This document shows positions 856 through 27,719 of a stretch of 64,000 nucleotides of DNA, piece after piece. The notes under the pieces were generated by a model. That model ran no database searches, was not told the origin of the DNA, and saw nothing but the letters and a program-made list of their open reading frames with translations. The stretch lies in assembly GCA_016197005.1 (NCBI GenBank), contig JACPWO010000001.1:474544-538543 (forward strand), written 5' to 3'. The DNA comes from Candidatus Anderseniibacteriota bacterium. GTDB lineage: Bacteria > Patescibacteriota > Andersenbacteria > UBA10190. Made by a program: the position numbers and the translations under genes. How positions within the stretch are numbered: the first letter of the stretch is position 1; the number at the start of each line of letters is the position of its first letter.

Positions 856-1785
856 ATGAGTAAGGACTTGTTGAAGATCTTCCGGTAGCTCTGCTTCAAT
901 AATTTTCTTCTTACCCGACGGTAACTGAAAGGCAATTCTCTCCGCGTGAAGGAATTGATGGGTAACGCCTTCAGGGGGACGCTGACGCTTGAATGTATAT
1001 AGCGTGTCTCCAACTACTGGGTGTCCCAAAAAATGCATGTGAACGCGAATCTGATGCGTACGACCAGTGAAGATATATACCTGGAATAAGGAAAAATCAT
1101 TTCCGAACGTTTCTTTTAGTTTCCACTCAGTAATGGCCGGTTTACCTTCTAGGAGGTCATCGGATGTACCGGCTGGTATGACCATCCGGCGGTGCGGATT
1201 TCTTTTGCTGCGACCAATTGGGCGGGTAATGCGTCCAAATTTTTCTCCTGGAATACCAAAAACGAGCGCTAGGTACTCTTTACGTGGCCGGTGACGCTTG
1301 AATTGTTCCTTCAGCCTCGTATATGCCTCGGCCGTTTTCGCCAGCAGGAGAACGCCGCTTGTATCTTTATCTAGGCGATGCACAATTCCTGGCCGACCAG
1401 GATCACCCACCTCCGCACTTCGAGGATAGCGGGCAGCAAACCACGCACTAATGGTTGGGCCGCGCTCGGCGGGAGCGGGGTGAACCGAAATTCCTGCCGG
1501 CTTATTAATTGCCAGCATGTCCTTATCTTCATAGATAATGGGAATTTTGAGGCTGCTTGAGTCTGGGGCTGGCTCAGTATTTTCTGGTGGCACAATGTTT
1601 ACCGTAATGGTGTCATCGACGCGGAGAGTCTGTTTTGGTTTCACTACCACACCATTTAGCATTATGCCGCCTGCTTTAATCGCACGCTGGAGAGCAGCTC
1701 GAGAGTACTGCGGAAAATGCGCAGCACACCACACGTCGAGACGTTGTCCTGATTCTTCTTTACTTACGGTTAGTAGTTCTGGCAT
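835..1785 (-). CDS. rluD: RluA-family 23S rRNA pseudouridine synthase (RluD-like) with N-terminal S4 domain
   Basis: S4-like RNA-binding N-terminus; catalytic motif HRLDKDTSGVLLLAKT with conserved Asp. Confidence 0.85.
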   Translation of the reverse strand: MPELLTVSKEESGQRLDVWCAAHFPQYSRAALQRAIKAGGIMLNGVVVKPKQTLRVDDTITVNIVPPENTEPAPDSSSLKIPIIYEDKDMLAINKPAGISVHPAPAERGPTISAWFAARYPRSAEVGDPGRPGIVHRLDKDTSGVLLLAKTAEAYTRLKEQFKRHRPRKEYLALVFGIPGEKFGRITRPIGRSKRNPHRRMVIPAGTSDDLLEGKPAITEWKLKETFGNDFSLFQVYIFTGRTHQIRVHMHFLGHPVVGDTLYTFKRQRPPEGVTHQFLHAERIAFQLPSGKKKIIEAELPEDLQQVLTHLRKTRS

Positions 1786-5083: not shown

Positions 5084-5106
5084 TTCGAACTCCTAAAGAA
5101 AAAATG

Positions 5107-5180
5107 TAGGCTCGCTGGGATTCGAACCCAGGACCTCGGCTTTATAAGAGCCGCGCTCTTACCAACTGAGCTACGAGCCT
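5107..5180 (-). tRNA. tRNA with anticodon UAU (Ile-like, decoding AUA)
   Basis: Manual cloverleaf on minus strand: acceptor AGGCUCG/CGAGCCU, D-arm GCUCAGUUGGUAAGAGC, anticodon stem CGGCU/AGCCG with loop CUUAUAA (U33, anticodon UAU, A37), T-arm CUGGG-UUCGAAU-CCCAG, discriminator A. Confidence 0.75.
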
Positions 5181-5230
5181 GTATATCTGTTTATTGCACG
5201 TTGCAGCGGCTTTGGCTATAGTTTCCTCGC

Positions 5231-5303
5231 GCGCGTGTAGCTCAGTGGTTAGAGCATCACATTGACATTGTGGGGGCCGAAGGTTCGATTCCTTCCACGC
5301 GCA
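5231..5303 (+). tRNA. tRNA-Val (anticodon GAC)
   Basis: Acceptor GCGCGUG/CACGCGC+A73; anticodon stem UCACA/UGUGG loop UUGACAU; T-arm GAAGG-UUCGAUU-CCUUC. Confidence 0.85.
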
Positions 5304-5337
5304 CCCATAAAAAGAGCCGATGCATGATCGGCTCACC

Positions 5338-11326: not shown

Positions 11327-13537
11327 ATGAGGGTGGCTTCCATCGATATCCAAGGATTCAAATCCTTCGCTAAAAAGACTCGCATTGATCTAACCGAGGG
11401 GATAACGGCTGTTATTGGTCCTAACGGCTCCGGTAAAAGCTGTGTTGTCGACGCCGTCAGGTGGGTTCTAGGAGAACAATCAATAAAACAGCTGCGCGGT
11501 AAGGCAAATACTGACATTATTTTTCACGGCAGTGAAGTGCTGCCACCGGCCCGCCGAGCAGAAGTTACGATTACCTTCGATAACGAATCGGGACGGTTCC
11601 CCTTGCCCAGCGCCACGGTCGCAGTAACTCGCCGCCTTACACGTGATGGTGAGAGTAGTTACCAAGTAAATCGCGAAGATGTGCGACTGCTTGATCTCCA
11701 ACAAATGCTGGCGCAAGCCGGAATTGGGGCAAAAACGTTTACGGTAATTTCTCAAGGCATGGTTGACCGTTATATCACCGCCTCACCAGCTGAACGTAAG
11801 GAATTATTTGATGATGCCACCGGCATCAAGCCACTGCAGCTCAAACTCATGGAAGCTCACCGCAAACTGAAGAAAACGCAGCAGCACGCACTAGAAATTG
11901 AAACCACTATTCGTGAGCTGGAGCCTCGTCTTAAAGTTTTGGCACGACAAATAAAACGGTATGAGCAACGAGAAAAAATCCAGGAGGCTTTTACCGTTAG
12001 CCAAGTACAGTGGTTTTCTCATGCCTGGCACAATGTGCGTCAACGTTTGACTGATTTAACAGCCCAGCAAGCTGAAGTAAGTAGGACAATTAAACAAGCT
12101 CGATCGCACCGCGAAACGTTAGAGAAAAAACTTATTACTGGTACGGGAACCCATAATCATGGGCTACACGCAGAGCTAACAACAGCGAATCAGGAGCTAG
12201 CAGCTGCTCAAAAAATATATAACGAGCGCACGCACGCACGAGTTCAACTGGAAAAGCTAATACAAGAAGCGCAGCTACAACTACAGCGAGCAGATAAGGC
12301 TCTTCAGGCCGTTACAACAAGGAGCCAGCCACTCGATTGGGTAGGCAATGTCACTCAACTACTTGAGCGTTGTCAAAAACTCTTACTTAAGATTGCTAAA
12401 AATCCAGCCACGACCACAACTGAAGCAGAGGCTATGGCCGATCAAATTCAAGAAAGCCTACAAACTCTTAAAAATACTTCAGCGGACACATTAATTCGCT
12501 CCGCCGCTGACGAACTCACGCGACCAGCAGCAGAGCTAGCGCGGATCGAGGCAATCCTGGAAGAACGGAAAAGGCAACTAGATGCTCTCCCCCCTCTGGA
12601 GGCACCTTCCTCCGCTCAAGTGGAGAAATTAACAAAACAACTAGCCAACCAGGGTGCCGTGCCTTTATCTGAAGACTCATTGGCTAGTCAGTTATCTTCG
12701 GCCAGACAAAACGAGCTAGCCGCCGAACGAGCAGACGGGGCGCTCGAAGCTGCTCTCGAACAAGCACGCATTGACTTAGCTCAACTGGAAAACGATATCT
12801 TACGGGAGCGCGGATCGCAGGCCTTGTCCACAATGCAACAAAAACCACCAGCTGAAAGTGGTCATACTCCATCTGAAGAAGAGCTACGACAACTCGCTGG
12901 TAAATTAGCGGCCTTAGGCGAACCAGATCCTCTCGTCATTAAAGAATATGGCGAAGTAGAGGAGCGGTATGAAAATCTAACCGCACAAATTGCTGATATT
13001 CGTTCTGCAGCAACCAACATTGTTGATCTCATGGGAACACTCCACACCCAAATGCAGAAACAATTTGGAGAAAAATTTCATGTCATACGCGCGGCTTTTA
13101 CGCGAGCATTTGTCGAACTGTTTGGTGGGGGCAATGCCGAACTTATGTTGATAGAAGAAGGAATAGACATTTCAGTTACTCCTCCCGGGAAAAGATCTCG
13201 ACATATTGGGCTGCTGTCTGGCGGAGAGAGAGCCTTAACATCGCTGGCGCTCTTGATGGCTATTTTAGAAGCGCAGTCGCCGCCCTTTATTGTCCTCGAT
13301 GAGGTTGATGCCGCGCTCGACGAAGCTAACTCTCAGCGGTTCTCTCACCTCTTGAGAGAGCGCTGCCACAACACTCAATGTATTGTCGTTACTCATAACC
13401 GTGAGGCCATGGCCTCAGCCGATGTTCTGTATGGGGTGACAATGCAGCAAAAAGGTGTTTCCAGCGTATATTCGGTAAAACTAGCCGATATTACGGAGAC
13501 GGATATGGGACAAGCTCATCAGGAAATCTCCATTTGA
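11327..13537 (+). CDS. smc: SMC-family chromosome segregation ATPase, unusually short (736 aa), no recognisable hinge
   Basis: N-terminal IQGFKSFA + Walker A GPNGSGKSCVVDAVRWVLGE; C-terminal LSGGERALTSLALLMAIL signature and FIVLDEVDAALDE Walker B; coiled-coil-like middle. Confidence 0.75.
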   Translation: MRVASIDIQGFKSFAKKTRIDLTEGITAVIGPNGSGKSCVVDAVRWVLGEQSIKQLRGKANTDIIFHGSEVLPPARRAEVTITFDNESGRFPLPSATVAVTRRLTRDGESSYQVNREDVRLLDLQQMLAQAGIGAKTFTVISQGMVDRYITASPAERKELFDDATGIKPLQLKLMEAHRKLKKTQQHALEIETTIRELEPRLKVLARQIKRYEQREKIQEAFTVSQVQWFSHAWHNVRQRLTDLTAQQAEVSRTIKQARSHRETLEKKLITGTGTHNHGLHAELTTANQELAAAQKIYNERTHARVQLEKLIQEAQLQLQRADKALQAVTTRSQPLDWVGNVTQLLERCQKLLLKIAKNPATTTTEAEAMADQIQESLQTLKNTSADTLIRSAADELTRPAAELARIEAILEERKRQLDALPPLEAPSSAQVEKLTKQLANQGAVPLSEDSLASQLSSARQNELAAERADGALEAALEQARIDLAQLENDILRERGSQALSTMQQKPPAESGHTPSEEELRQLAGKLAALGEPDPLVIKEYGEVEERYENLTAQIADIRSAATNIVDLMGTLHTQMQKQFGEKFHVIRAAFTRAFVELFGGGNAELMLIEEGIDISVTPPGKRSRHIGLLSGGERALTSLALLMAILEAQSPPFIVLDEVDAALDEANSQRFSHLLRERCHNTQCIVVTHNREAMASADVLYGVTMQQKGVSSVYSVKLADITETDMGQAHQEISI

Positions 13538-18202: not shown

Positions 18203-18408
18203 GATCAATACGATCCTTAACGGGTTGATACAATCCAAACAAAGAACACGCACTATTCTCAGTCAAAGTTCCAGACCAAAAGTGGTCACAGAGAATGTGC
18301 CCTCTTTTTTGTTTTAGGGGTCATGATCGTTTAACAATTTGCTACGGAATTATACGTTAAATTACGTTCTAGTCTGCGTATTTATACGCGACTACAAACG
18401 TCTTTCTA

Positions 18409-19878
<1,470 letters not shown>

Positions 19879-20118
19879 AGGGAGAAAACTGACGTTGTGT
19901 CGTGGTTAACCAGACACAACGCCCTAGAGGTCGACTTTGTCACTTTGACAAGGCTTGCTCGTAAAGAGCCGCGGAGAGCATATCCTCCACGAAAAACATG
20001 TGATATGCAACAAATAGAAAGACTACTTTGTAGTCGCGTATAAGAACGTAGAACATAGGCCGCCCTTAGGGCGGCTTTGTGTTGCAAAAGATACATTTTA
20101 AGGGTTAAATGGCACTAC

Positions 20119-20191
20119 GCGCGTGTAGCTCAGTGGTTAGAGCACCACACTGATAATGTGGGGGTCGAAGGTTCGATTCCTTCCACGCGCA
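20119..20191 (+). tRNA. tRNA-Ile (anticodon GAU)
   Basis: Acceptor GCGCGUG/CACGCGC+A73, anticodon stem CCACA/UGUGG loop CUGAUAA; near-identical to tRNA-Val at 5231. Confidence 0.9.
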
Positions 20192-20233
20192 CAAACAAAT
20201 GCACCTTCTGAACCTTTACCAAGGATCTATTAA

Positions 20234-20626
20234 ATGTCTAAATCTAGGCCAAAAACAAAGTTAGTTCGCTTTGGTCAGTATTTACAAGATTTACGGATAA
20301 CTAGAAAAAAGGGCTCTCAAAGAAAGGTTGCTACTGCCTTGAAATCACAAGGTCATCAGGTAACACAAGGCGCTATTGCACAGTATGAAGGGGGGCTGGT
20401 CACAAACCCGCATTACGAATTGCTCTCCGCCCTAGCACGACTCTACGATGAGCCATACGAAAACATGATCGTGCAATTAGTTGCCGATAAATACAAAGTG
20501 AAACCGCCTCCTGAGCAATTATCAGGTAGTTCTCTCCCAGTTCGCCCTGCGATTCGCTTGGAATTTCGAGACATCGACAGTTTGCGCGAAGCTGGTGAGT
20601 GGTTCTTCAACAAGATGCGACAGTGA
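20234..20626 (+). CDS. XRE-like helix-turn-helix DNA-binding protein
   Basis: N-terminal basic region followed by HTH-like segment (QRKVATALKSQGHQVTQGAIAQYEGG); 130 aa. Confidence 0.5.
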   Translation: MSKSRPKTKLVRFGQYLQDLRITRKKGSQRKVATALKSQGHQVTQGAIAQYEGGLVTNPHYELLSALARLYDEPYENMIVQLVADKYKVKPPPEQLSGSSLPVRPAIRLEFRDIDSLREAGEWFFNKMRQ

Positions 20627-20642
20627 GACTGTTACTTCAGCG

Positions 20643-20675
20643 CCCTCGCAGGTAAAACTGCGAGGTTTTATTTCC
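20643..20675 (+). terminator. Terminator-like hairpin (CCCTCGCAG-GTAAAA-CTGCGAGG then TTTTATTT)
   Basis: 8-9 bp stem and T-rich tail just after the HTH gene stop. Confidence 0.4.
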
Positions 20676-20712
20676 TGATTACTCATTCTTAATTACCAGT
20701 TACTATTCACTT

Positions 20713-22149
20713 ATGACACTGCCACCAGAAGTTCAATCTGCCCTGAAAATACTCCACGATGCTGGCTTTGCCGCTTATGGCGTCGGTGGTGGCGTACGGG
20801 ATTTGCTTCTGAATAAAAAACCAAAGGACTGGGACGTTACAACGAATGCCAAGCCTGAGGAAATTCAGAAACTATTTCCAAAAAGTTTTTATGCCAATCA
20901 GTTTGGGACCGTCACTATTCTCACGACGAGCGAAGATCCTTCTCTAAAAGAAATTGAGATTACAACGTACCGGTCAGAAAAAGGATACTCGGACCAACGC
21001 CATCCCGACGAAATAGCATTTGTTTCAAACTTAGAAGAGGACTTGGCTCGTCGTGACTTCACCATTAATGCAATTGCTCTCGACGAAGAGACAGTGGTTG
21101 ATCCTTTCGATGGCCAAGCTGACCTGGCAGGCAAACTGGTGCGAGCAGTTGGCAACCCGAAGGAACGGTTTGCGGAAGATGCGCTGCGTTTGTTACGAGC
21201 AGTGCGCCTCGCAACTGAACTTAACTTTGAGATAGAACCAAAAACACTCGCCGCTGTTACACAATATGCTCCCGCTATTACCGCCGTGTCGCATGAGCGG
21301 GTACGAGATGAATTAATAAAACTGGTAAAGAGTGACTATCCGGAAAAGGGAATGAATCTTCTCAAAGAGACAGGGCTCTTAGCGCTTATCCTCCCCGAAG
21401 TTGCTGAGGGTATTGCCGTCGGACAAAATCGTCACCACATTTATACCGTCTTTGAGCATAATATTAAGTCACTCCAGTACGCGGCTACGTACAAGTACCC
21501 CTTTCACGTCCGTCTAGCTGCTCTTCTTCATGACATCGGTAAACCGCGTACGAAACGATTCGATAAAAAGATTAATGACTATACGTTTTATGCCCACGAT
21601 ATTGTTGGATCACGCATGGCGGAAAAAGTATTGAAGCGTCTTAAGTTTTCGAAAAAGATGACCGACACTATAACGCATTTAGTTCGTCATCACATGTTCT
21701 ATTACGACGTTGGCAAAGTTACTGAGGCGGGCGCCCGGCGCCTGCTGCGACGAGTCGGCAAGGAACACTTCGACGATCTCATCAAGCTTCGCATTGCTGA
21801 ACGTAAAGGCTCGGGCGTGCCCAAGGCAGAACCATATCGACTCCGTCACTTGCAGTTCATGGTTGAAAAGGCCGCTCAAGAACCTATCTCCGTGAAGGAA
21901 CTTAAAATTACCGGTCGCCACTTACAGGAACTTGGCATGAAAGCAGGACCAATTTTTGGTGGTATTTTGAATGCTCTCCTCGCCGAAGTACTAGAAGATC
22001 CAATAAAAAATACGAAAGAATATTTACTCAAACGTGCAGTGGAGCTTAAGGATAAAAATCCTGATGAACTTAAAAAATTAGGTGAGGTAGCGGCGCAAGA
22101 AGAAGAATTGAAGCGTGAGGAAGACATTAAGAAAAAGTATCGGGTATAA
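20713..22149 (+). CDS. cca: CCA-adding enzyme (tRNA nucleotidyltransferase) with HD domain
   Basis: Pol-beta NTase head GVGGGVRDLLLNKKPKDWDVTT, RRDFTINA motif, HD-domain histidines (LLHDIGKP, HDIV). Confidence 0.85.
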   Translation: MTLPPEVQSALKILHDAGFAAYGVGGGVRDLLLNKKPKDWDVTTNAKPEEIQKLFPKSFYANQFGTVTILTTSEDPSLKEIEITTYRSEKGYSDQRHPDEIAFVSNLEEDLARRDFTINAIALDEETVVDPFDGQADLAGKLVRAVGNPKERFAEDALRLLRAVRLATELNFEIEPKTLAAVTQYAPAITAVSHERVRDELIKLVKSDYPEKGMNLLKETGLLALILPEVAEGIAVGQNRHHIYTVFEHNIKSLQYAATYKYPFHVRLAALLHDIGKPRTKRFDKKINDYTFYAHDIVGSRMAEKVLKRLKFSKKMTDTITHLVRHHMFYYDVGKVTEAGARRLLRRVGKEHFDDLIKLRIAERKGSGVPKAEPYRLRHLQFMVEKAAQEPISVKELKITGRHLQELGMKAGPIFGGILNALLAEVLEDPIKNTKEYLLKRAVELKDKNPDELKKLGEVAAQEEELKREEDIKKKYRV

Positions 22150-22156
22150 TAAAGAC

Positions 22157-22408
22157 ATGTCTTTTGGATCCTTCATCTTTGGTTTTCTTATTATGATCGT
22201 TGGTATGTTTATGGTTATCCGCACCAACTGGTTCCTGGAAAACTTGGGTGATCTTGGTTCTATGATTGGTGTCTACGATAAATCCTGGCTCAGCTGGAAA
22301 GCCTTTGGTGTTTTTCTCATCTTCCTCGGGTTCTCAATTGCTTTTAGTTTATTCACGATCCTGATAAAGGCAACGATCGGCCAACTCTTTGTCTTTGGCG
22401 GATTGTAA
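22157..22408 (+). CDS. small 3-TM membrane protein, hypothetical
   Basis: 84 aa, hydrophobic helices; first internal ATG after the cca stop chosen. Confidence 0.4.
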   Translation: MSFGSFIFGFLIMIVGMFMVIRTNWFLENLGDLGSMIGVYDKSWLSWKAFGVFLIFLGFSIAFSLFTILIKATIGQLFVFGGL

Positions 22409-22409
22409 G

Positions 22410-22480
22410 TGGACCTGGGGAGAATCGAACTCCCATCCCCCGGATGCAAACCGGGTGCTCTGCCACTAAGCTACAGGCCC
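22410..22480 (-). tRNA. tRNA-Ala (anticodon UGC), opposite strand to the rRNA genes
   Basis: Acceptor stem with G3:U70 identity pair, anticodon stem CCCGG/CCGGG loop UUUGCAU, T-arm GGGAG-UUCGAUU-CUCCC, discriminator A. Confidence 0.9.
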
Positions 22481-22521
22481 TTGGTATCAACTTTGAAGCA
22501 GTATGCCTAAAGGCGTTGCTT

Positions 22522-22551
22522 TTGACAACACACGTATTTCTGCGCTATAAT
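22522..22551 (+). promoter_or_regulatory. sigma70-like promoter (TTGACA -18- TATAAT) for the downstream membrane-protein gene
   Basis: -35 TTGACA 22522-22527; perfect -10 TATAAT 22546-22551; GAGAGGAGG RBS before ATG 22616; the -35 region is a near-palindrome (TTTGACAA) that could also serve a minus-strand promoter for tRNA-Ala. Confidence 0.5.
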
Positions 22552-22615
22552 AATTTCAGATACGAGACCGATTTTCCTTCGAAATTAATACTACGAGAGG
22601 AGGTGTTACGAGACT

Positions 22616-23317
22616 ATGGCTGTAAATTCATCATTCGGTACGTGGACTGACGCTGTTGTCACGTCGTTAACAGATTTGTGGCTTCAGTTTGTCTCTTTCA
22701 TCCCGAATTTAGTCGCAGCACTGGTTGTCTTTTTTATTGGATGGGCAATTTCTATCGCAGTTGGCCGTCTAATTGAAAAAGCTCTCGTTGTGTTGCGAAT
22801 CAATGAAGCATTTGGAAGTTTGCAAGGACTGAAGCAAGCAGTAGCTCAAGCAGGGCTTAAGCTCAACGTTGCTCACGTGGTTGGCGAAATCTTCAAGTGG
22901 TTCCTCCTTATCGTGACGGTACTCGCCACGACAGATATCTTGGGACTTAATGAAGTATCACAATTCTTGCGATCAGTATTGCTTTATATTCCGAACGTAG
23001 TAGTAGCCGCACTCATCCTCGTAATTTCGGTGGTGCTGGCAAACTTCGTTTATCGAACAGTACTCGCAAGCGTCGAAGCAGCTGGCTTTACCAGCGGCGG
23101 CGCAGTTGCCTTAGTAAGCAAATGGGCGATCATCATCTTCGCTATCTTTGCTGCTTTGCTCCAATTGAATGTAGCGACGCCTTTGATTCAGACATTCCTA
23201 ACTGCCCTCTTCGCCATGATCGCCATCGCTGGCGGTCTAGCGTTTGGCTTAGGTGGCAAGGAACTGGCTGCCAAATGGCTTAAGAAGTTCGAACAAGACC
23301 TTTCTGGACGTAAATAA
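22616..23317 (+). CDS. Multi-TM membrane protein with repeated conserved TM-helix motifs (MscS N-terminal-like)
   Basis: 233 aa, ~6 TM helices with internal repeat character. Confidence 0.45.
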   Translation: MAVNSSFGTWTDAVVTSLTDLWLQFVSFIPNLVAALVVFFIGWAISIAVGRLIEKALVVLRINEAFGSLQGLKQAVAQAGLKLNVAHVVGEIFKWFLLIVTVLATTDILGLNEVSQFLRSVLLYIPNVVVAALILVISVVLANFVYRTVLASVEAAGFTSGGAVALVSKWAIIIFAIFAALLQLNVATPLIQTFLTALFAMIAIAGGLAFGLGGKELAAKWLKKFEQDLSGRK

Positions 23318-23337
23318 TAACGACTAGAAAAACAAAA

Positions 23338-23366
23338 AACGGTGCCTGCAGTAGGGCCGTTTTTTG
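23338..23366 (+). terminator. Imperfect terminator-like hairpin followed by TTTTTT
   Basis: AACGGTGCC-loop-GGGCCGTT then T6, 20 nt after stop. Confidence 0.4.
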
Positions 23367-23382
23367 CGTTTTAAGGCTCCTG

Positions 23383-23410
23383 TTGACAGCTTTTGCAGGT
23401 TATATATAGT
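23383..23410 (+). promoter_or_regulatory. Candidate separate 23S rRNA promoter (TTGACA -16- TATAGT)
   Basis: -35 TTGACA 23383-23388; -10 TATAGT 23405-23410; ~355-nt leader to 23S 5' end. Confidence 0.5.
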
Positions 23411-24382
23411 GTCTATTAGCTATATGCAGAAAGCTTTTAACTGCAAGACCCCACGAAGCGGCTAGGCCGAAATCTTTTCGAGCCCACCAAAACCGCTTCC
23501 TCTGGACAAGCGGTTTTTTAGTAGCCGCTACAACACAAGCCATCGATAGAATAATGGTTCTCAACAATTATTCCTCTGTGGCTTGTTTGATTGAACACTG
23601 CCAATTGAATAAGCAATATCATTGCAATTGAACGATCACCAATAGTAGTAATTAGAAATCAAAAACAAGGAGCGATGTTGATCAGCGCTTGGGGCGCGGA
23701 TACGCATCGCTAGCTATACAAAAATAGCAAAGCATGCAGCTCATGACGGTGTGAATGAAATTCATACACCGTAAGGGTATACAGGTGGATGCCTTGGCAA
23801 TGGACGACGATGAAGGACGTGGCAGGCTACGATAAGCTGCGGGGAGGTGCCTAGCAACCGGCGATCCGCGGATGTCCGAATGGGGAAACCCGGCTTTGTG
23901 AATAACGAAGTCACTTTCTTACTGCAAGGTAGGATAGAGTAAACCTAGCGAACTGAAACATCTTAGTAGCTAGTGGAAAAGAAAAGAACGATCTTTGTTT
24001 CTCTTTAGAATTCCGTTCTCTCTTTCCCGTTTCCTGCAAAGGAAATTGGATTTGGGAGAACTGGTAATTTTACTGTTGAAGACAACGATTACATTCCCTT
24101 AGTAGTGGCGAGCGAAACGGGAACAGCCCAAACTTACATTTATGTAAGTGTTGTAGGGTATCGTTATATAGATAAGAGATATGTGCCTAGTAGAACGGGC
24201 TGGAATGCCCGGCCATAGAAGGTGAGAGCCCTGTAAACGAAAGGTATATTTCTTAACTTACGATATTCCTGAGTAGGGCGGGACACGTGAAATCCTGCCT
24301 GAACCCGGGAGAACTATCAAAATCCTCTGTGTTTTGGCTTCGGCCAGAACATAGTGGATCTCCCAAGGCTAAATACGACCAT

Positions 24383-24429
<47 letters not shown>

Positions 24430-25866
24430 GGAAGGGGAATGAAATAGACCTGAAACCGTATACCTACATCGAGTCGGAGGCTGCTCGCAAGAGCGGCTGA
24501 CGGCGTGCTTTTTGCAGAACGAACCACCGAGTTCGCTGTACACGGCTTAGGTTAAGTCTCATTCGAGACGAAGCCAGAGCGAAAGCGAGTGTTAATAGCG
24601 CGATTATGTCGTGTGCACGAGACCCGAAACCAGGTGATCTACCCATGAGCAGGGTGAAGTGTCGCGAAAGCGTACATGGAGGCCCGAACCGGTTGGCCGT
24701 ACAATACCATCGGATGACTTGTGGGTAGGGGAGAAATTCCAATCGAACCTGGAAATAGCTGGTTCTCGCCGAAATAGCTTTCGGGCTAGCCTCGTATAAT
24801 GAACTAATCAGTGGTAGAGCACTGCAAGGGATCTTCCGTCCTTTTGGATGGGGACCCTAGCAAACTCCGAATGCTGGTTAGGAATGTACGGGAGTCAGAA
24901 CGCGGGGGCTAAGCTCCGCGCTCAAAAGGGGAACAGCCCAGATCGTAATTTAAGGTCCCTAAATCTTACCTAAGTGGGAAAGGTAGTGGGATTGCTAAGA
25001 CAGCCAGGCAGTTGGCTTAGAAGCAGCCACCTGTTAAAGAAAGCGTAACAGCTCACTGGTCAAGCGATCCTGCGCCGAAAATGTAACGGGGCTCAAGGTA
25101 AGTACCGAAAATACGGAGTATTGTCTTTTAAGACAAAATTGGTAGGCGAGCGTTTCAGTCTGCGTCGAAGGTGTACCGTGAGGTATGCTGGAGCGGCTGG
25201 AAGTGAGAATGGTGGTATGAGTAGCAAGACACAAGGTGAGAGTCCTTGTCACCGAAAGCCTAAGGTTTCCTGGGCAATGTCGATCATCCCAGGGTTAGTC
25301 GGTCCTAAGGCGAGGCCGAAAGGCGTAGTCGATGGACAGCAGGTCGATATTCCTGCACCGTCTATAGCGTTCACAAGGCTTGACGGATCGTTAGAGCATG
25401 TCAGGACATATGACTTATCCTGCAGCAACTATTAGACAGAGTGTTTTGGTAAATCCGGACACTTGTTACGTTGAAAGTTGTTGGGCGAGCGCGGCCTTCG
25501 GGCCAAGCCGCTATATGGGAAAACGGTCCCCGGAAAAGCGTCGTGTGATTTCCGCTATGGGCGTCCGTACCGCAAACCAACTCAGGTAGGCAAGTGTGAG
25601 AGTACTAAGGTGATCGGGAGAAACCTCGTTAAGGAACTCGGCAAAAAAGCAGCCGTACGTTCGCAATAAGGCTTGCCCTGTCTTTATGGCAGGGCCGCAG
25701 CGACTGATCTCTGGCGACTGTTTAACAAAAACACAGGTCCCTGCTAACTCGTAAGAGGATGTATAGGGGCTGACGCCTGGCCAGTGTCGGAAGGTCAATC
25801 CTGGGGGTGAAAGCTCTCAGGCCAAGCCCCGATGAACGCCGGCCGTAACTATAACGGTCCTATGGT

Positions 25867-26166
25867 AGAGGAATTTGGCCACGATACGTCGTGGACTTTG
25901 CTGCCATAGTAAAATTGAGCTATATGCTGGAAACTCTGGTGTACTTAAAGAGAAATCTGACAAGTGCAGCCGTCCATTAGGACGAGCTACCAGACAATCA
26001 GCAGGAAATCCGCAAGGAGATCCTCAGAGACTACACGCTCAACCCAACGTATAAATCTTTACGTTGCGGAAGATATAGTCCGATCTGCATGGCGACATGC
26101 AGAACTCTACAGAAATGGAGAGTCACGTAAACTTAACGAAAGTAGATAAGTACGTCGTAACATTCG
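25867..26166 (+). mobile_element. Group I intron (ORF-less, ~300 nt) in 23S at the site equivalent to E. coli ~L1917-1925 (GGTCCTATGGT | AGCGAAATTCC)
   Basis: Exon sequence on both sides reconstitutes the conserved ACGGTCCTA(A/T)GGTAGCGAAATTCC; upstream exon ends in U and intron ends in G; intron contains P7-like strands CAGAGACTACACG and AAGATATAGTCC. Confidence 0.75.
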
Positions 26167-26738
26167 AGCGAAATTCCTTGGCACGTAAGTTGTGTCCCGC
26201 ACGAATGGCGTCACGACTGGAGAACTGTCTCAACGAGGTACCCGGTGAAATTGCAATGTCGGTAAAGATGCCGCCACCCTGCGGCTAGACGGAAAGACCC
26301 CGTGAAGCTTCACTACAGCTTGATATTGGCACGTCGAACTCAATGCTCAGTATAGGTGGGAGACTTTGAACCAGGTGCTTCGGCGCCTGGGGAGTCACAA
26401 TATGAGATACCACCCTTTGTGTTTAACGCGTCTAACGGCGCAGTGCAATCCACTGCCCGGACAGTGTCTGGCGGGTAGTTTGTCTGGGGCGGATTCCTCC
26501 TAAATTGTAACGGAGGAGCCTATAAGGTTACCTAGGTCCGGATGGAAATCGGACTCGTCGTGTAAAGGCACAAGGTAGCTTAACTGCGAGGCGTACATGC
26601 CGAGCAGGCGCGAAAGCGGAGCTTAGTGAACCGACCGTTCTCGAATAGAAGAGCGGAAGATCATCGGATAAAAGTTACTCCGGGGATAACAGGCTGGTCT
26701 CGCCCAATAGTCCACATAGACGGCGAGGTTCGGCACCT

Positions 26739-27093
26739 TAATTAAAATCGGGGTGCCCAAGGAGTGATCCTTGAAAGTCTGAGTTATAAGTCTTTCTGAA
26801 TAATTACAGATAAAAATCGAATAGTAAGTAAACCAGCTAAAAACGGTGAACTCTTACCTATCTTGATGCATTAAAAAGATAGAAGACAACGCCGTGGGAA
26901 GCATGAATCCAAGGTGGACTCATGCCCCGTAACGACTGACTCGAAAGAGGAGGCCCACAAAACACAGTTAAGGAAATCACTGTGGGCAAAAGGCTGGCTC
27001 TCACTAATAAAAAGATGTTATGGAATTTCCTACGACATCTCGTGAGATGAAGGCATAGTCTAATCTTCTTGGAAACAAGAAGTAGAACGACAG
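26739..27093 (+). mobile_element. Second putative group I intron (ORF-less, ~355 nt) in 23S at the site equivalent to E. coli ~L2500 (GGCACCT | CGATGTCGGCTC)
   Basis: Flanks reconstitute the conserved GGCACCTCGATGTCGGCTC; 5' exon ends in U and insert ends in G; insert contains GGCATAGTC (P7 3'-strand-like). Confidence 0.6.
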
Positions 27094-27577
27094 CGATGTC
27101 GGCTCAACCTATCCTGGAGGGGAAGCACCTTCCAAGGGTGTGTCTGTTCGCCACTTAAAAGGTTACGTGAGCTGGGTTCAAACCGTCGCAAGACAGGTTG
27201 GACCCTATCTGTCGCAGGCGTGGAAACTTGAGGAGCGTCCACAATAGTACGAGAGGACCTTGTGGGACCGACCTCTAGTGTACCAGTTGTCCCGTTCTGG
27301 GGCATCGCTGGGTAGCTATGTCGGGCTGGTGATAAGTGCTGAAAGCATCTAAGCACGAAGCCCACTCCAAGATCAGGTTTCAATAACGAGACTCCTAGAA
27401 GACTACTAGGTTGATAGGCAGGAGGTGTACGCGCAGTAATGCGCTCAGCCGACCTGTACTAATGTTCCAGTTGTATGATTCTTACCACCGACATGAGCAA
27501 ATTGCTTTGTTAATAGCTAGCGATGCGTATTTACGCAGTCGTTTAATTAATGATATTGCGTCGTTTCAATTCAGAGA

Positions 27578-27694
<117 letters not shown>

Positions 27695-27719
27695 TTTTCT
27701 GAATTGAAACCCTTCAAAC

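Follow-up and report, generated by a model that had tools for sequence, protein, structure and literature searches.

The tRNA-Val(GAC) and tRNA-Ile(GAU) genes of a CPR bacterium, Candidatus Anderseniibacteriota, are identical at 68 of 73 bases (93.2%; ungapped, over the 73 nt up to A73). Comparison with the corresponding genes of relatives suggests that this similarity probably arose in two steps: an old one, by which the tRNA-Ile of the clade acquired a Val-type body, and a later gene conversion, which carried the T-arm of tRNA-Val into tRNA-Ile. The identity of 93% is exceptional because the T-arm of this tRNA-Ile equals that of its own tRNA-Val. Throughout, the window denotes the whole 64-kb stretch of DNA that was analysed.

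Two tRNAs that differ at five positions

According to ARAGORN, the window contains eight tRNAs. Two of them, both on the plus strand, form the pair described here: tRNA-Val(GAC) at 5231-5303 (5231-5305 as called by ARAGORN; Rfam tRNA, 73.1 bits) and a tRNA-Ile(GAU) with a Val-type body at 20119-20191 (20119-20192 as called by ARAGORN; Rfam tRNA, 78.8 bits). The tRNA-Val gene comprises 73 nt up to the discriminator A73 and has no encoded CCA. Five bases distinguish the two genes. In tRNA-Val they are U27, U32, C36, U38 and C47 (5257, 5262, 5266, 5268 and 5277), and in tRNA-Ile C27, C32, U36, A38 and U47 (20145, 20150, 20154, 20156 and 20165). The change of anticodon from GAC to GAU is thus the C36/U36 difference, which comes together with changes at 27, 32, 38 and 47. 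All five lie in a segment formed by the anticodon arm and part of the variable loop, at 20145-20165 in tRNA-Ile, with its counterpart at 5257-5277 in tRNA-Val. The original prediction had described the two genes as near-identical, with the same acceptor stem, D-arm, T-arm and A73, and all of this is borne out by the ungapped alignment; its estimate of about seven differences was too high.

The minimum free energy fold of the tRNA-Val transcript is the cloverleaf. The same stems fit tRNA-Ile, but there the minimum-energy fold shifts the register of the T-arm. Both genes are predicted to be functional tRNAs, and each appears as a single copy; ARAGORN reports no second tRNA-Ile(GAU) within the 64-kb window. 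The 5' 26-mer and the 3' 22-mer shared by the pair are confined to the two tRNA sites when the window is searched with up to three mismatches, and shuffled sequences give an expectation of 0. When the flanks of the two genes were compared with each other, we found no similarity and no footprint of a segmental duplication.

The similarity of the pair is far above background. Within single genomes, tRNA-Val(GAC) and tRNA-Ile(GAU) are 71.6-73.0% identical in the distant CPR loci L021, L022, L036 and L039, and in E. coli K-12 they share 50-54 of 74 positions (68-73%). Among members of the clade itself, the value is 70.3% in L097 and 81.9% in L095, and it reaches 86.3% between the tRNA-Val of L093 and the tRNA-Ile of L092, two contigs of one sample that are assumed to represent one genome. 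Chance similarity, one of the two circumstances that the original prediction had named as speaking against it, is ruled out: no other pair of tRNAs in the window is more than 72% identical, and Val/Ile pairs elsewhere stay at 68-73%. As a separate observation, the two genes stand in tandem in L021, L022, L036 and L039/L040, only 5-270 nt apart, yet are 72-73% identical.

Genomic setting of the two genes

The tRNA-Val(GAC) gene lies between a gene for a MacB-type ABC permease and ftsH. It is divergent from a tRNA-Ile(UAU) gene on the minus strand (5106-5180), the body of which is unrelated, being 58-65% identical to those of tRNA-Val and tRNA-Ile(GAU). This divergent pairing is kept in L003, L005, L006, L008, L014, L093, L095, L097 and L099. 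The tRNA-Ile(UAU) bodies themselves are of two types, one beginning with AGGC (window, L093, L005 and L099) and the other with GGGCC (L003, L006, L008, L095 and L097). A tRNA-Ile(UAU) allows lysidine-independent reading of AUA, as is known from Mycoplasma mobile (PMC3575796).

The tRNA-Ile(GAU) gene starts 243 nt 3' of the end of the 16S rRNA gene (18406-19876, plus strand; Rfam; 3' end motif at 19863-19875). Given its position relative to 16S, it is the spacer-type Ile gene of an rRNA operon that is fragmented (18406-27695), with protein genes between its parts. The 16S gene is followed by a GC hairpin (20059-20075), tRNA-Ile, a gene for an HTH protein (20234-20626), the gene for the CCA-adding enzyme (20713-22149), tRNA-Ala(UGC), a mechanosensitive-channel gene (22616-23317), 23S (23760-27482) and 5S, and a group I intron is present within 23S (25851-26102; Rfam RF00028, 70 bits). 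The same gene order is found in L092, L095, L097 and L100. The tRNAs have no encoded CCA, and the gene for the CCA-adding enzyme sits between two of them. The tRNA-Ala(UGC) gene (22409-22480) is on the minus strand in the window and on the plus strand in L100, L092, L095 and L097; only the tRNA itself, about 72 nt long and 95.8% identical to that of L100, matches in inverted orientation, and the neighbouring genes are collinear.

A TTGCAA-17 nt-TTAAAT motif on the plus strand (20082-20110) ends 8 nt before tRNA-Ile and is conserved in the window, L100 and L092; the GC hairpin at 20059-20075 lies just ahead of it. Going by the motif, it is possible that tRNA-Ile has a putative promoter of its own. 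Ahead of tRNA-Val, a TTGCAC-17-TATAGT motif (5194-5222) likewise leaves 8 nt to the start of the mature tRNA. A sigma-70 promoter scan, at its threshold, called nothing upstream of either tRNA, these motifs included. The window was also searched for genes encoding IleRS or ValRS, and it contains no sufficiently large ORF for either enzyme.

A Val-type body in the tRNA-Ile genes of the clade

Loci of relatives were retrieved via homologues of the CCA-adding enzyme and of an SMC protein (11327-13537). Relatives belonging to the clade share the gene order of the window, have FtsH proteins 73-79% identical and, where measured, 16S genes 83-87% identical; the syntenic ones are labelled Saccharibacteria or Andersenbacteria. 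The SMC-anchored metagenome scan returned mostly distant CPR (SMC 31-54% identical), which are of use as outgroups only. A pattern scan of a genome collection was biased by design, as it demanded the D-arm and T-loop of the window; its seven hits, all in CPR, include no genome with both genes, and they reveal the lineage and the conservation of tRNA-Val, the Ile side being beyond its reach.

The tRNA-Val(GAC) gene of the window is matched at 73 of 73 bases in L004, despite an FtsH identity of only 69%, at 72 in L005, at 71 in L006 and at 69 in L093. In L014, a member of the clade with an FtsH 76% identical, tRNA-Val(GAC) at 5094-5166 is divergent: its acceptor is GCGCGCG, its anticodon stem, variable loop and T-arm are not those of the window, and outside the anticodon loop it differs from the tRNA-Val of the window at 19 positions. 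The L014 contig stops before 16S.

Orthologous tRNA-Ile(GAU) genes with a Val-type body occupy the same post-16S site in L100, L092, L094 and L095. With L100 and L092, the tRNA-Ile of the window shares both its position and its flanks, the upstream flank being conserved. The tRNA-Ile bodies of the clade combine a GCGC(G/A)UG acceptor, a short D-loop, A26, the anticodon stem C(C/U)ACA and a (G/U)GGUC variable loop. Those of clade tRNA-Val(GAC) have a GCGCGYG acceptor, a 7-8 nt D-loop AGUGGU(U)A, A26, a YCACA/UGUGG anticodon stem and a GGGYC variable loop. All outgroup tRNA-Ile(GAU) genes carry GGGY-type acceptors, mostly GGGC. Outside the clade, the tRNA-Ile of the window and that of L100 are, in spite of their anticodon loops, slightly nearer to the tRNA-Val(GAC) of E. 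coli (54-56/74) than to its tRNA-Ile(GAU) (52/74). Since the relatives that share the Val-type Ile body have 16S genes only 83-87% identical, the trait is old and clade-wide.

Five alignment columns, 27, 32, 36, 38 and 47, distinguish every clade Val gene from every clade Ile gene, and they are exactly the five differences of the window; the sole exception to these fixed states is U47 in the tRNA-Val of L005. Because the five differences are fixed across the clade, they are selected class markers and not fresh mutations.

A derived C2-G71 pair is common to tRNA-Val and tRNA-Ile only within this clade. Together with the overall body, it argues that one of the two genes originated as a copy of the other or was converted by it. 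The GCGCGCG acceptor, being present also in the divergent tRNA-Val of L014, favours transfer from Val to Ile. C2-G71 is derived in both genes, and in the Berkelbacteria locus L007 the tRNA-Ile is GGGC-type, yet its D- and T-arms equal those of the window. How the Ile genes of the clade gained their Val-type body, and whether sequence passed from Val to Ile or the other way, is less certain than the presence of that body.

In this first step, the Ile gene of the clade ancestor would have gained its Val-type body in one of two ways: a mutated copy of tRNA-Val was recruited as tRNA-Ile (alloacceptor remoulding), or the Ile gene was converted by tRNA-Val. At 83-87% 16S identity among relatives, any footprint of a duplication would have decayed. 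Conversion without duplication would account for the sequence data equally well.

A Val-type T-arm in the tRNA-Ile of the window

L100 is the sister of the window according to an NJ tree of the CCA-adding enzyme and the similarity of the spacers, and the species tree rests on these two. Its tRNA-Ile gene reads GCGCGTGTAGCTCAGTGGTTAGAGCACCACACTGATAATGTGGGGGTCGGAAGTTCGACTCTTCCCACGCGCA. The tRNA-Ile of the window equals this gene at positions 1-49, including the entire segment 20145-20165 that holds all differences to tRNA-Val. The two Ile genes differ only in the T-arm, at positions 50, 52, 59, 62 and 64, and at five of these five the tRNA-Ile of the window has the base of its own tRNA-Val. The Ile-type T-stem GGAAG/CUUCC is present in the Ile genes of L100, L092, L094 and L095 and in a remnant in L090; being common to several Ile genes, it is old in Ile. 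By the same reasoning the Val-type T-stem GAAGG/CCUUC, common to the Val genes of the window, L004, L005 and L006, is old in Val.

A single breakpoint, between positions 47 and 50, divides the ten informative sites 5|5, with Ile-lineage sequence on its 5' side and the sequence of the genome's own tRNA-Val on its 3' side; such an arrangement has a probability of 2/252 = 0.008. Against this argument, selection by itself would already gather Ile-like sites in the anticodon arm. Had three independent events, two base-pair swaps and one loop change, produced the T-arm match, the probability of each hitting the state of the paralogue, with nothing else altered, would roughly be below 1e-4. From these site patterns, it appears well supported that the T-arm was converted from Val to Ile once the lineages of the window and L100 had separated. 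The minimal conversion tract spans 20168-20182 (positions 50-64) on the plus strand. The maximal tract, 20166-20192 on the same strand, would comprise the T-arm and the 3' acceptor strand and run from after position 47 to one base beyond A73. In this recent second step, tRNA-Val(GAC), 15 kb away, would have been the donor in a non-reciprocal transfer of its T-arm into tRNA-Ile. The transfer would have erased the remaining neutral differences and left the five selected positions.

Trees of the tRNAs are less informative than individual sites. Outside the anticodon loop, the tRNA-Ile of the window has 2 differences from its own tRNA-Val, 1 from the tRNA-Val of L005, 5 from the tRNA-Ile of L100 and 7 from that of L092; counted without gaps, it is 5-9 differences away from other clade Ile genes and 6-18 from outgroup Ile genes. 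In an NJ tree of 68 columns, with the anticodon loop removed, it nests among the Val genes, and much of this closeness to Val stems from the T-arm tract. The clade Ile genes (n = 5) are monophyletic in 0.6% of 500 bootstraps, and the combined clade of Val and Ile twins has a bootstrap value of 56%, short tRNAs yielding weak trees. Because of this weak node support, we relied on site-by-site parsimony instead. The clade provides three or four within-genome Val/Ile pairs, the assumed L092/L093 pair included.

The same data could be read without any exchange between the genes, as two separate Val and Ile lineages kept alike by very slow evolution and by structural constraint (the elbow of D-loop and T-loop, modification enzymes used in common), with the T-arm match a result of parallel substitution. 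The extreme conservation of tRNA-Val, as seen in the complete match of L004, is in line with this. So is the L095 lineage, in which D-loop length and T-loop position 60 shift together in Val and Ile, and similar loops occur in other tRNAs of that lineage, consistent with structural coupling. We nonetheless regard this explanation as unlikely: all five substitutions would have to hit the states of the paralogue, for which the rough probability is that given above; the pairs of outgroup CPR, which are similarly constrained, stay at 70-73%; and the derived C2-G71 pair is common to Val and Ile in this clade only.

Quite improbable, too, is that a recent duplicate of the whole tRNA-Val(GAC) gene replaced the spacer tRNA-Ile and that mutations of the anticodon arm then turned it into tRNA-Ile(GAU). 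This would fit the two differences from its own tRNA-Val outside the anticodon loop and the nesting among Val genes in the NJ tree, and the change from C36 to U36 does switch the main identity determinant (PMC9976931). Against it stand the orthologues of L100 and L092, found at the same site with a conserved upstream flank, and the identity to L100 throughout positions 1-49. A recent duplicate would need five convergent substitutions as well as an exact same-site replacement, where one T-arm conversion suffices, and the flanks of the two loci show no similarity. Of the duplication with anticodon remoulding that the original prediction proposed, the Val-type body and common ancestry or sequence transfer between the genes are supported. 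A simple duplication in this genome is not, given that the orthologues of relatives already have Val-type bodies, the differences are fixed in the clade, the tRNA-Ile gene is a mosaic with a Val-type T-arm and the flanks are unrelated.

Finally, it is very improbable that an assembly or binning error produced a chimeric or duplicated tRNA or that one of the two is a pseudogene, even though the source is a metagenome-assembled genome and rRNA regions are easily misassembled. Two independent Logan assemblies made from other runs, L001 and L002, contain exactly the same tRNA-Ile/HTH/CCA-enzyme segment. Moreover, L092, L095, L097 and L100 have the same gene order, and both genes combine Rfam scores of 73-79 bits with intact cloverleaf stems and the conserved class-specific states at the five positions. 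Assembly duplication, the other circumstance named against the original prediction, and segmental duplication are likewise ruled out by the unrelated flanks and the agreement of these assemblies.

Turnover at the tRNA-Ile locus of relatives

Conventional and dissimilar tRNA-Val and tRNA-Ile genes in related genomes had been proposed as evidence against remoulding, and the relatives give a mixed picture: distant CPR as well as L090, L101 and L097 have conventional Ile bodies, and other near relatives share the twin. The tRNA-Ile of L097 joins a GCGCGUG acceptor to a conventional body, and those of L101 and L090 are of the conventional GGGC type.

In L090, an intact conventional tRNA-Ile(GAU) of the GGGC type (1014-1088, minus strand) lies inside a 173-nt insert, which is bordered by the remnants of a Val-like tRNA-Ile: its 5' positions 1-21 at 1142-1162 and its 3' positions 36-73 at 931-968. 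The whole structure (931-1162) is antisense to 16S and recurs in L091 (899-1130), and 14 nt of the Val-like tRNA-Ile are missing. The ends of the insert resemble 12-nt inverted repeats (CCAGCCTTCGCC / GGCGAAGGCCGG). The CCA-adding enzyme of L090 is 72% identical to that of the window. Judged from these sequences, both conventional and Val-bodied types of tRNA-Ile appear to circulate in the clade.

L097 (16041-16117) and L095 (16017-16089) have identical tRNA-Val genes and 16S genes 93% identical, and the bodies of their tRNA-Ile(GAU) are very different. These Ile genes share the acceptor and anticodon stems and differ in the D-loop, position 26, variable loop and T-arm. The contrast suggests another event of mosaic formation or replacement.

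A wider reading would be that, in a CPR lineage of class rank, tRNA-Val(GAC) and tRNA-Ile(GAU) behave as one pair that repeatedly exchanges tracts, the Val-bodied Ile being recurrently disrupted or replaced by conventional cassettes. The cases behind it are the T-arm of the window, the shared D- and T-loop changes of the L095 lineage, and L090, L101 and the mosaic of L097. We put this forward only tentatively and think it rather doubtful. If it were true, IleRS and ValRS would tell the twins apart by no more than some 3-5 anticodon-arm nucleotides, and the two synthetases most prone to error would be kept separate by a minimal identity switch of natural origin.

Identity elements of the twin tRNAs

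Isoleucine identity depends on the anticodon, t6A37 and A73 together with minor stem elements, which in E. coli are C4-G69, the 12-23 pair and C29-G41; valine identity depends on A35, C36 and A73, with minor contributions of G20 and G45 (Giegé & Eriani 2023, PMC9976931). Because A35 and A73 are shared by both systems, tRNA-Ile is readily mischarged by ValRS (PMC9976931). These sets are E. coli rules and may not apply to CPR enzymes. The tRNA-Ile of the window contains G34, A35, U36, A37 (which is t6A-capable), A38 and A73. It also has C4-G69 and U12-A23, as does its Val twin, and its 29-41 pair is A-U, not C-G. The tRNA-Val of the window contains A35, C36, A73 and G45, and a U at position 20 takes the place of the minor determinant G20.

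As A35, A73, C4-G69, U12-A23 and G45 are thus common to both twins, the discrimination between them would have to lie in position 36, the modification of A37 and positions 38, 32 and 27. IleRS and ValRS would separate the twins by U36, t6A37 and A38 in tRNA-Ile versus C36 in tRNA-Val. From the distribution of these bases, we infer that the discrimination by the two enzymes rests on the anticodon arm. These positions make up the extended anticodon, of which C27, C32, U36, A38 and U47 represent the Ile type, and the extended anticodon also tunes decoding.

Discussion

The pair appears to fit alloacceptor remoulding on two points, a body from a foreign acceptor family and a changed anticodon. Such recruitment of tRNA genes by an anticodon shift is described in metazoan mitochondria, as treated by Sahyoun et al. 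2015 (PMC4783518), and in eukaryotic nuclear genomes (Rogers & Griffiths-Jones 2014, PMC3923123). As in those cases, the tRNA-Ile body of the window is nearer to another acceptor family than to tRNAs elsewhere with the same anticodon, and the switch, made by C36/U36, is between two synthetases that mainly read the anticodon. Unlike in those cases, the genome is a bacterial one (CPR) of free-living type, the genes are single-copy, the trait is old and clade-wide, the footprint of a duplication is absent, and the extreme similarity seen in the window would stem from a later, partial conversion.

Ectopic gene conversion and concerted evolution among tRNA copies are described, for example, in Velandia-Huerto et al. 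2016 (PMC4981973). The T-arm tract of the window's tRNA-Ile resembles such conversion in that the sequence of a distant paralogue would have replaced it, resulting in a two-segment mosaic. Concerted evolution usually operates among isoacceptor copies of multicopy families, whereas the genes concerned here are a single-copy Val and a single-copy Ile gene, and selection would keep their anticodon arms apart.

With the spacer tRNA-Ile(GAU) of E. coli (ileV, between rrsH and alaV), the tRNA-Ile of the window shares its location downstream of 16S, the GAU anticodon, A37, A38 and A73 and the pairs C4-G69 and U12-A23. It differs in having a GCGC instead of a GGGC or AGGC acceptor and A29-U41 instead of C29-G41. 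In contrast to E. coli, protein genes interrupt the rRNA operon, and this tRNA-Ile has a putative promoter of its own.

In engineered E. coli anticodon-swap tRNAs, Ile or Val identity follows the anticodon (classic work, reviewed in Giegé & Eriani 2023, PMC9976931). Much as in these constructs, one body in the window would accept valine or isoleucine according to nucleotides of the anticodon loop. The swapped tRNAs are laboratory constructs, whereas the pair of the window is natural and has been kept throughout a deep clade.

We conclude that the pair is a bacterial example of known tRNA evolution and not a new kind of molecular system. A literature search did not find this Val/Ile pair described in Patescibacteria, an absence that is no proof of novelty. 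An old Val-type body in tRNA-Ile, followed by conversion of the T-arm, would provide a natural, single-copy bacterial case of a tRNA body from a foreign family, which is usually documented in organelles and eukaryotes. It would equally be a natural case of conversion across acceptor identities, restrained by selection on the anticodon arm. The pair also offers a natural minimal set of differences between Ile and Val, at positions 27, 32, 36, 38 and 47, for IleRS and ValRS, the classic editing and fidelity pair. For CPR genomes more generally, phylogenies of tRNA bodies and similarity-based annotation of tRNAs may mislead.
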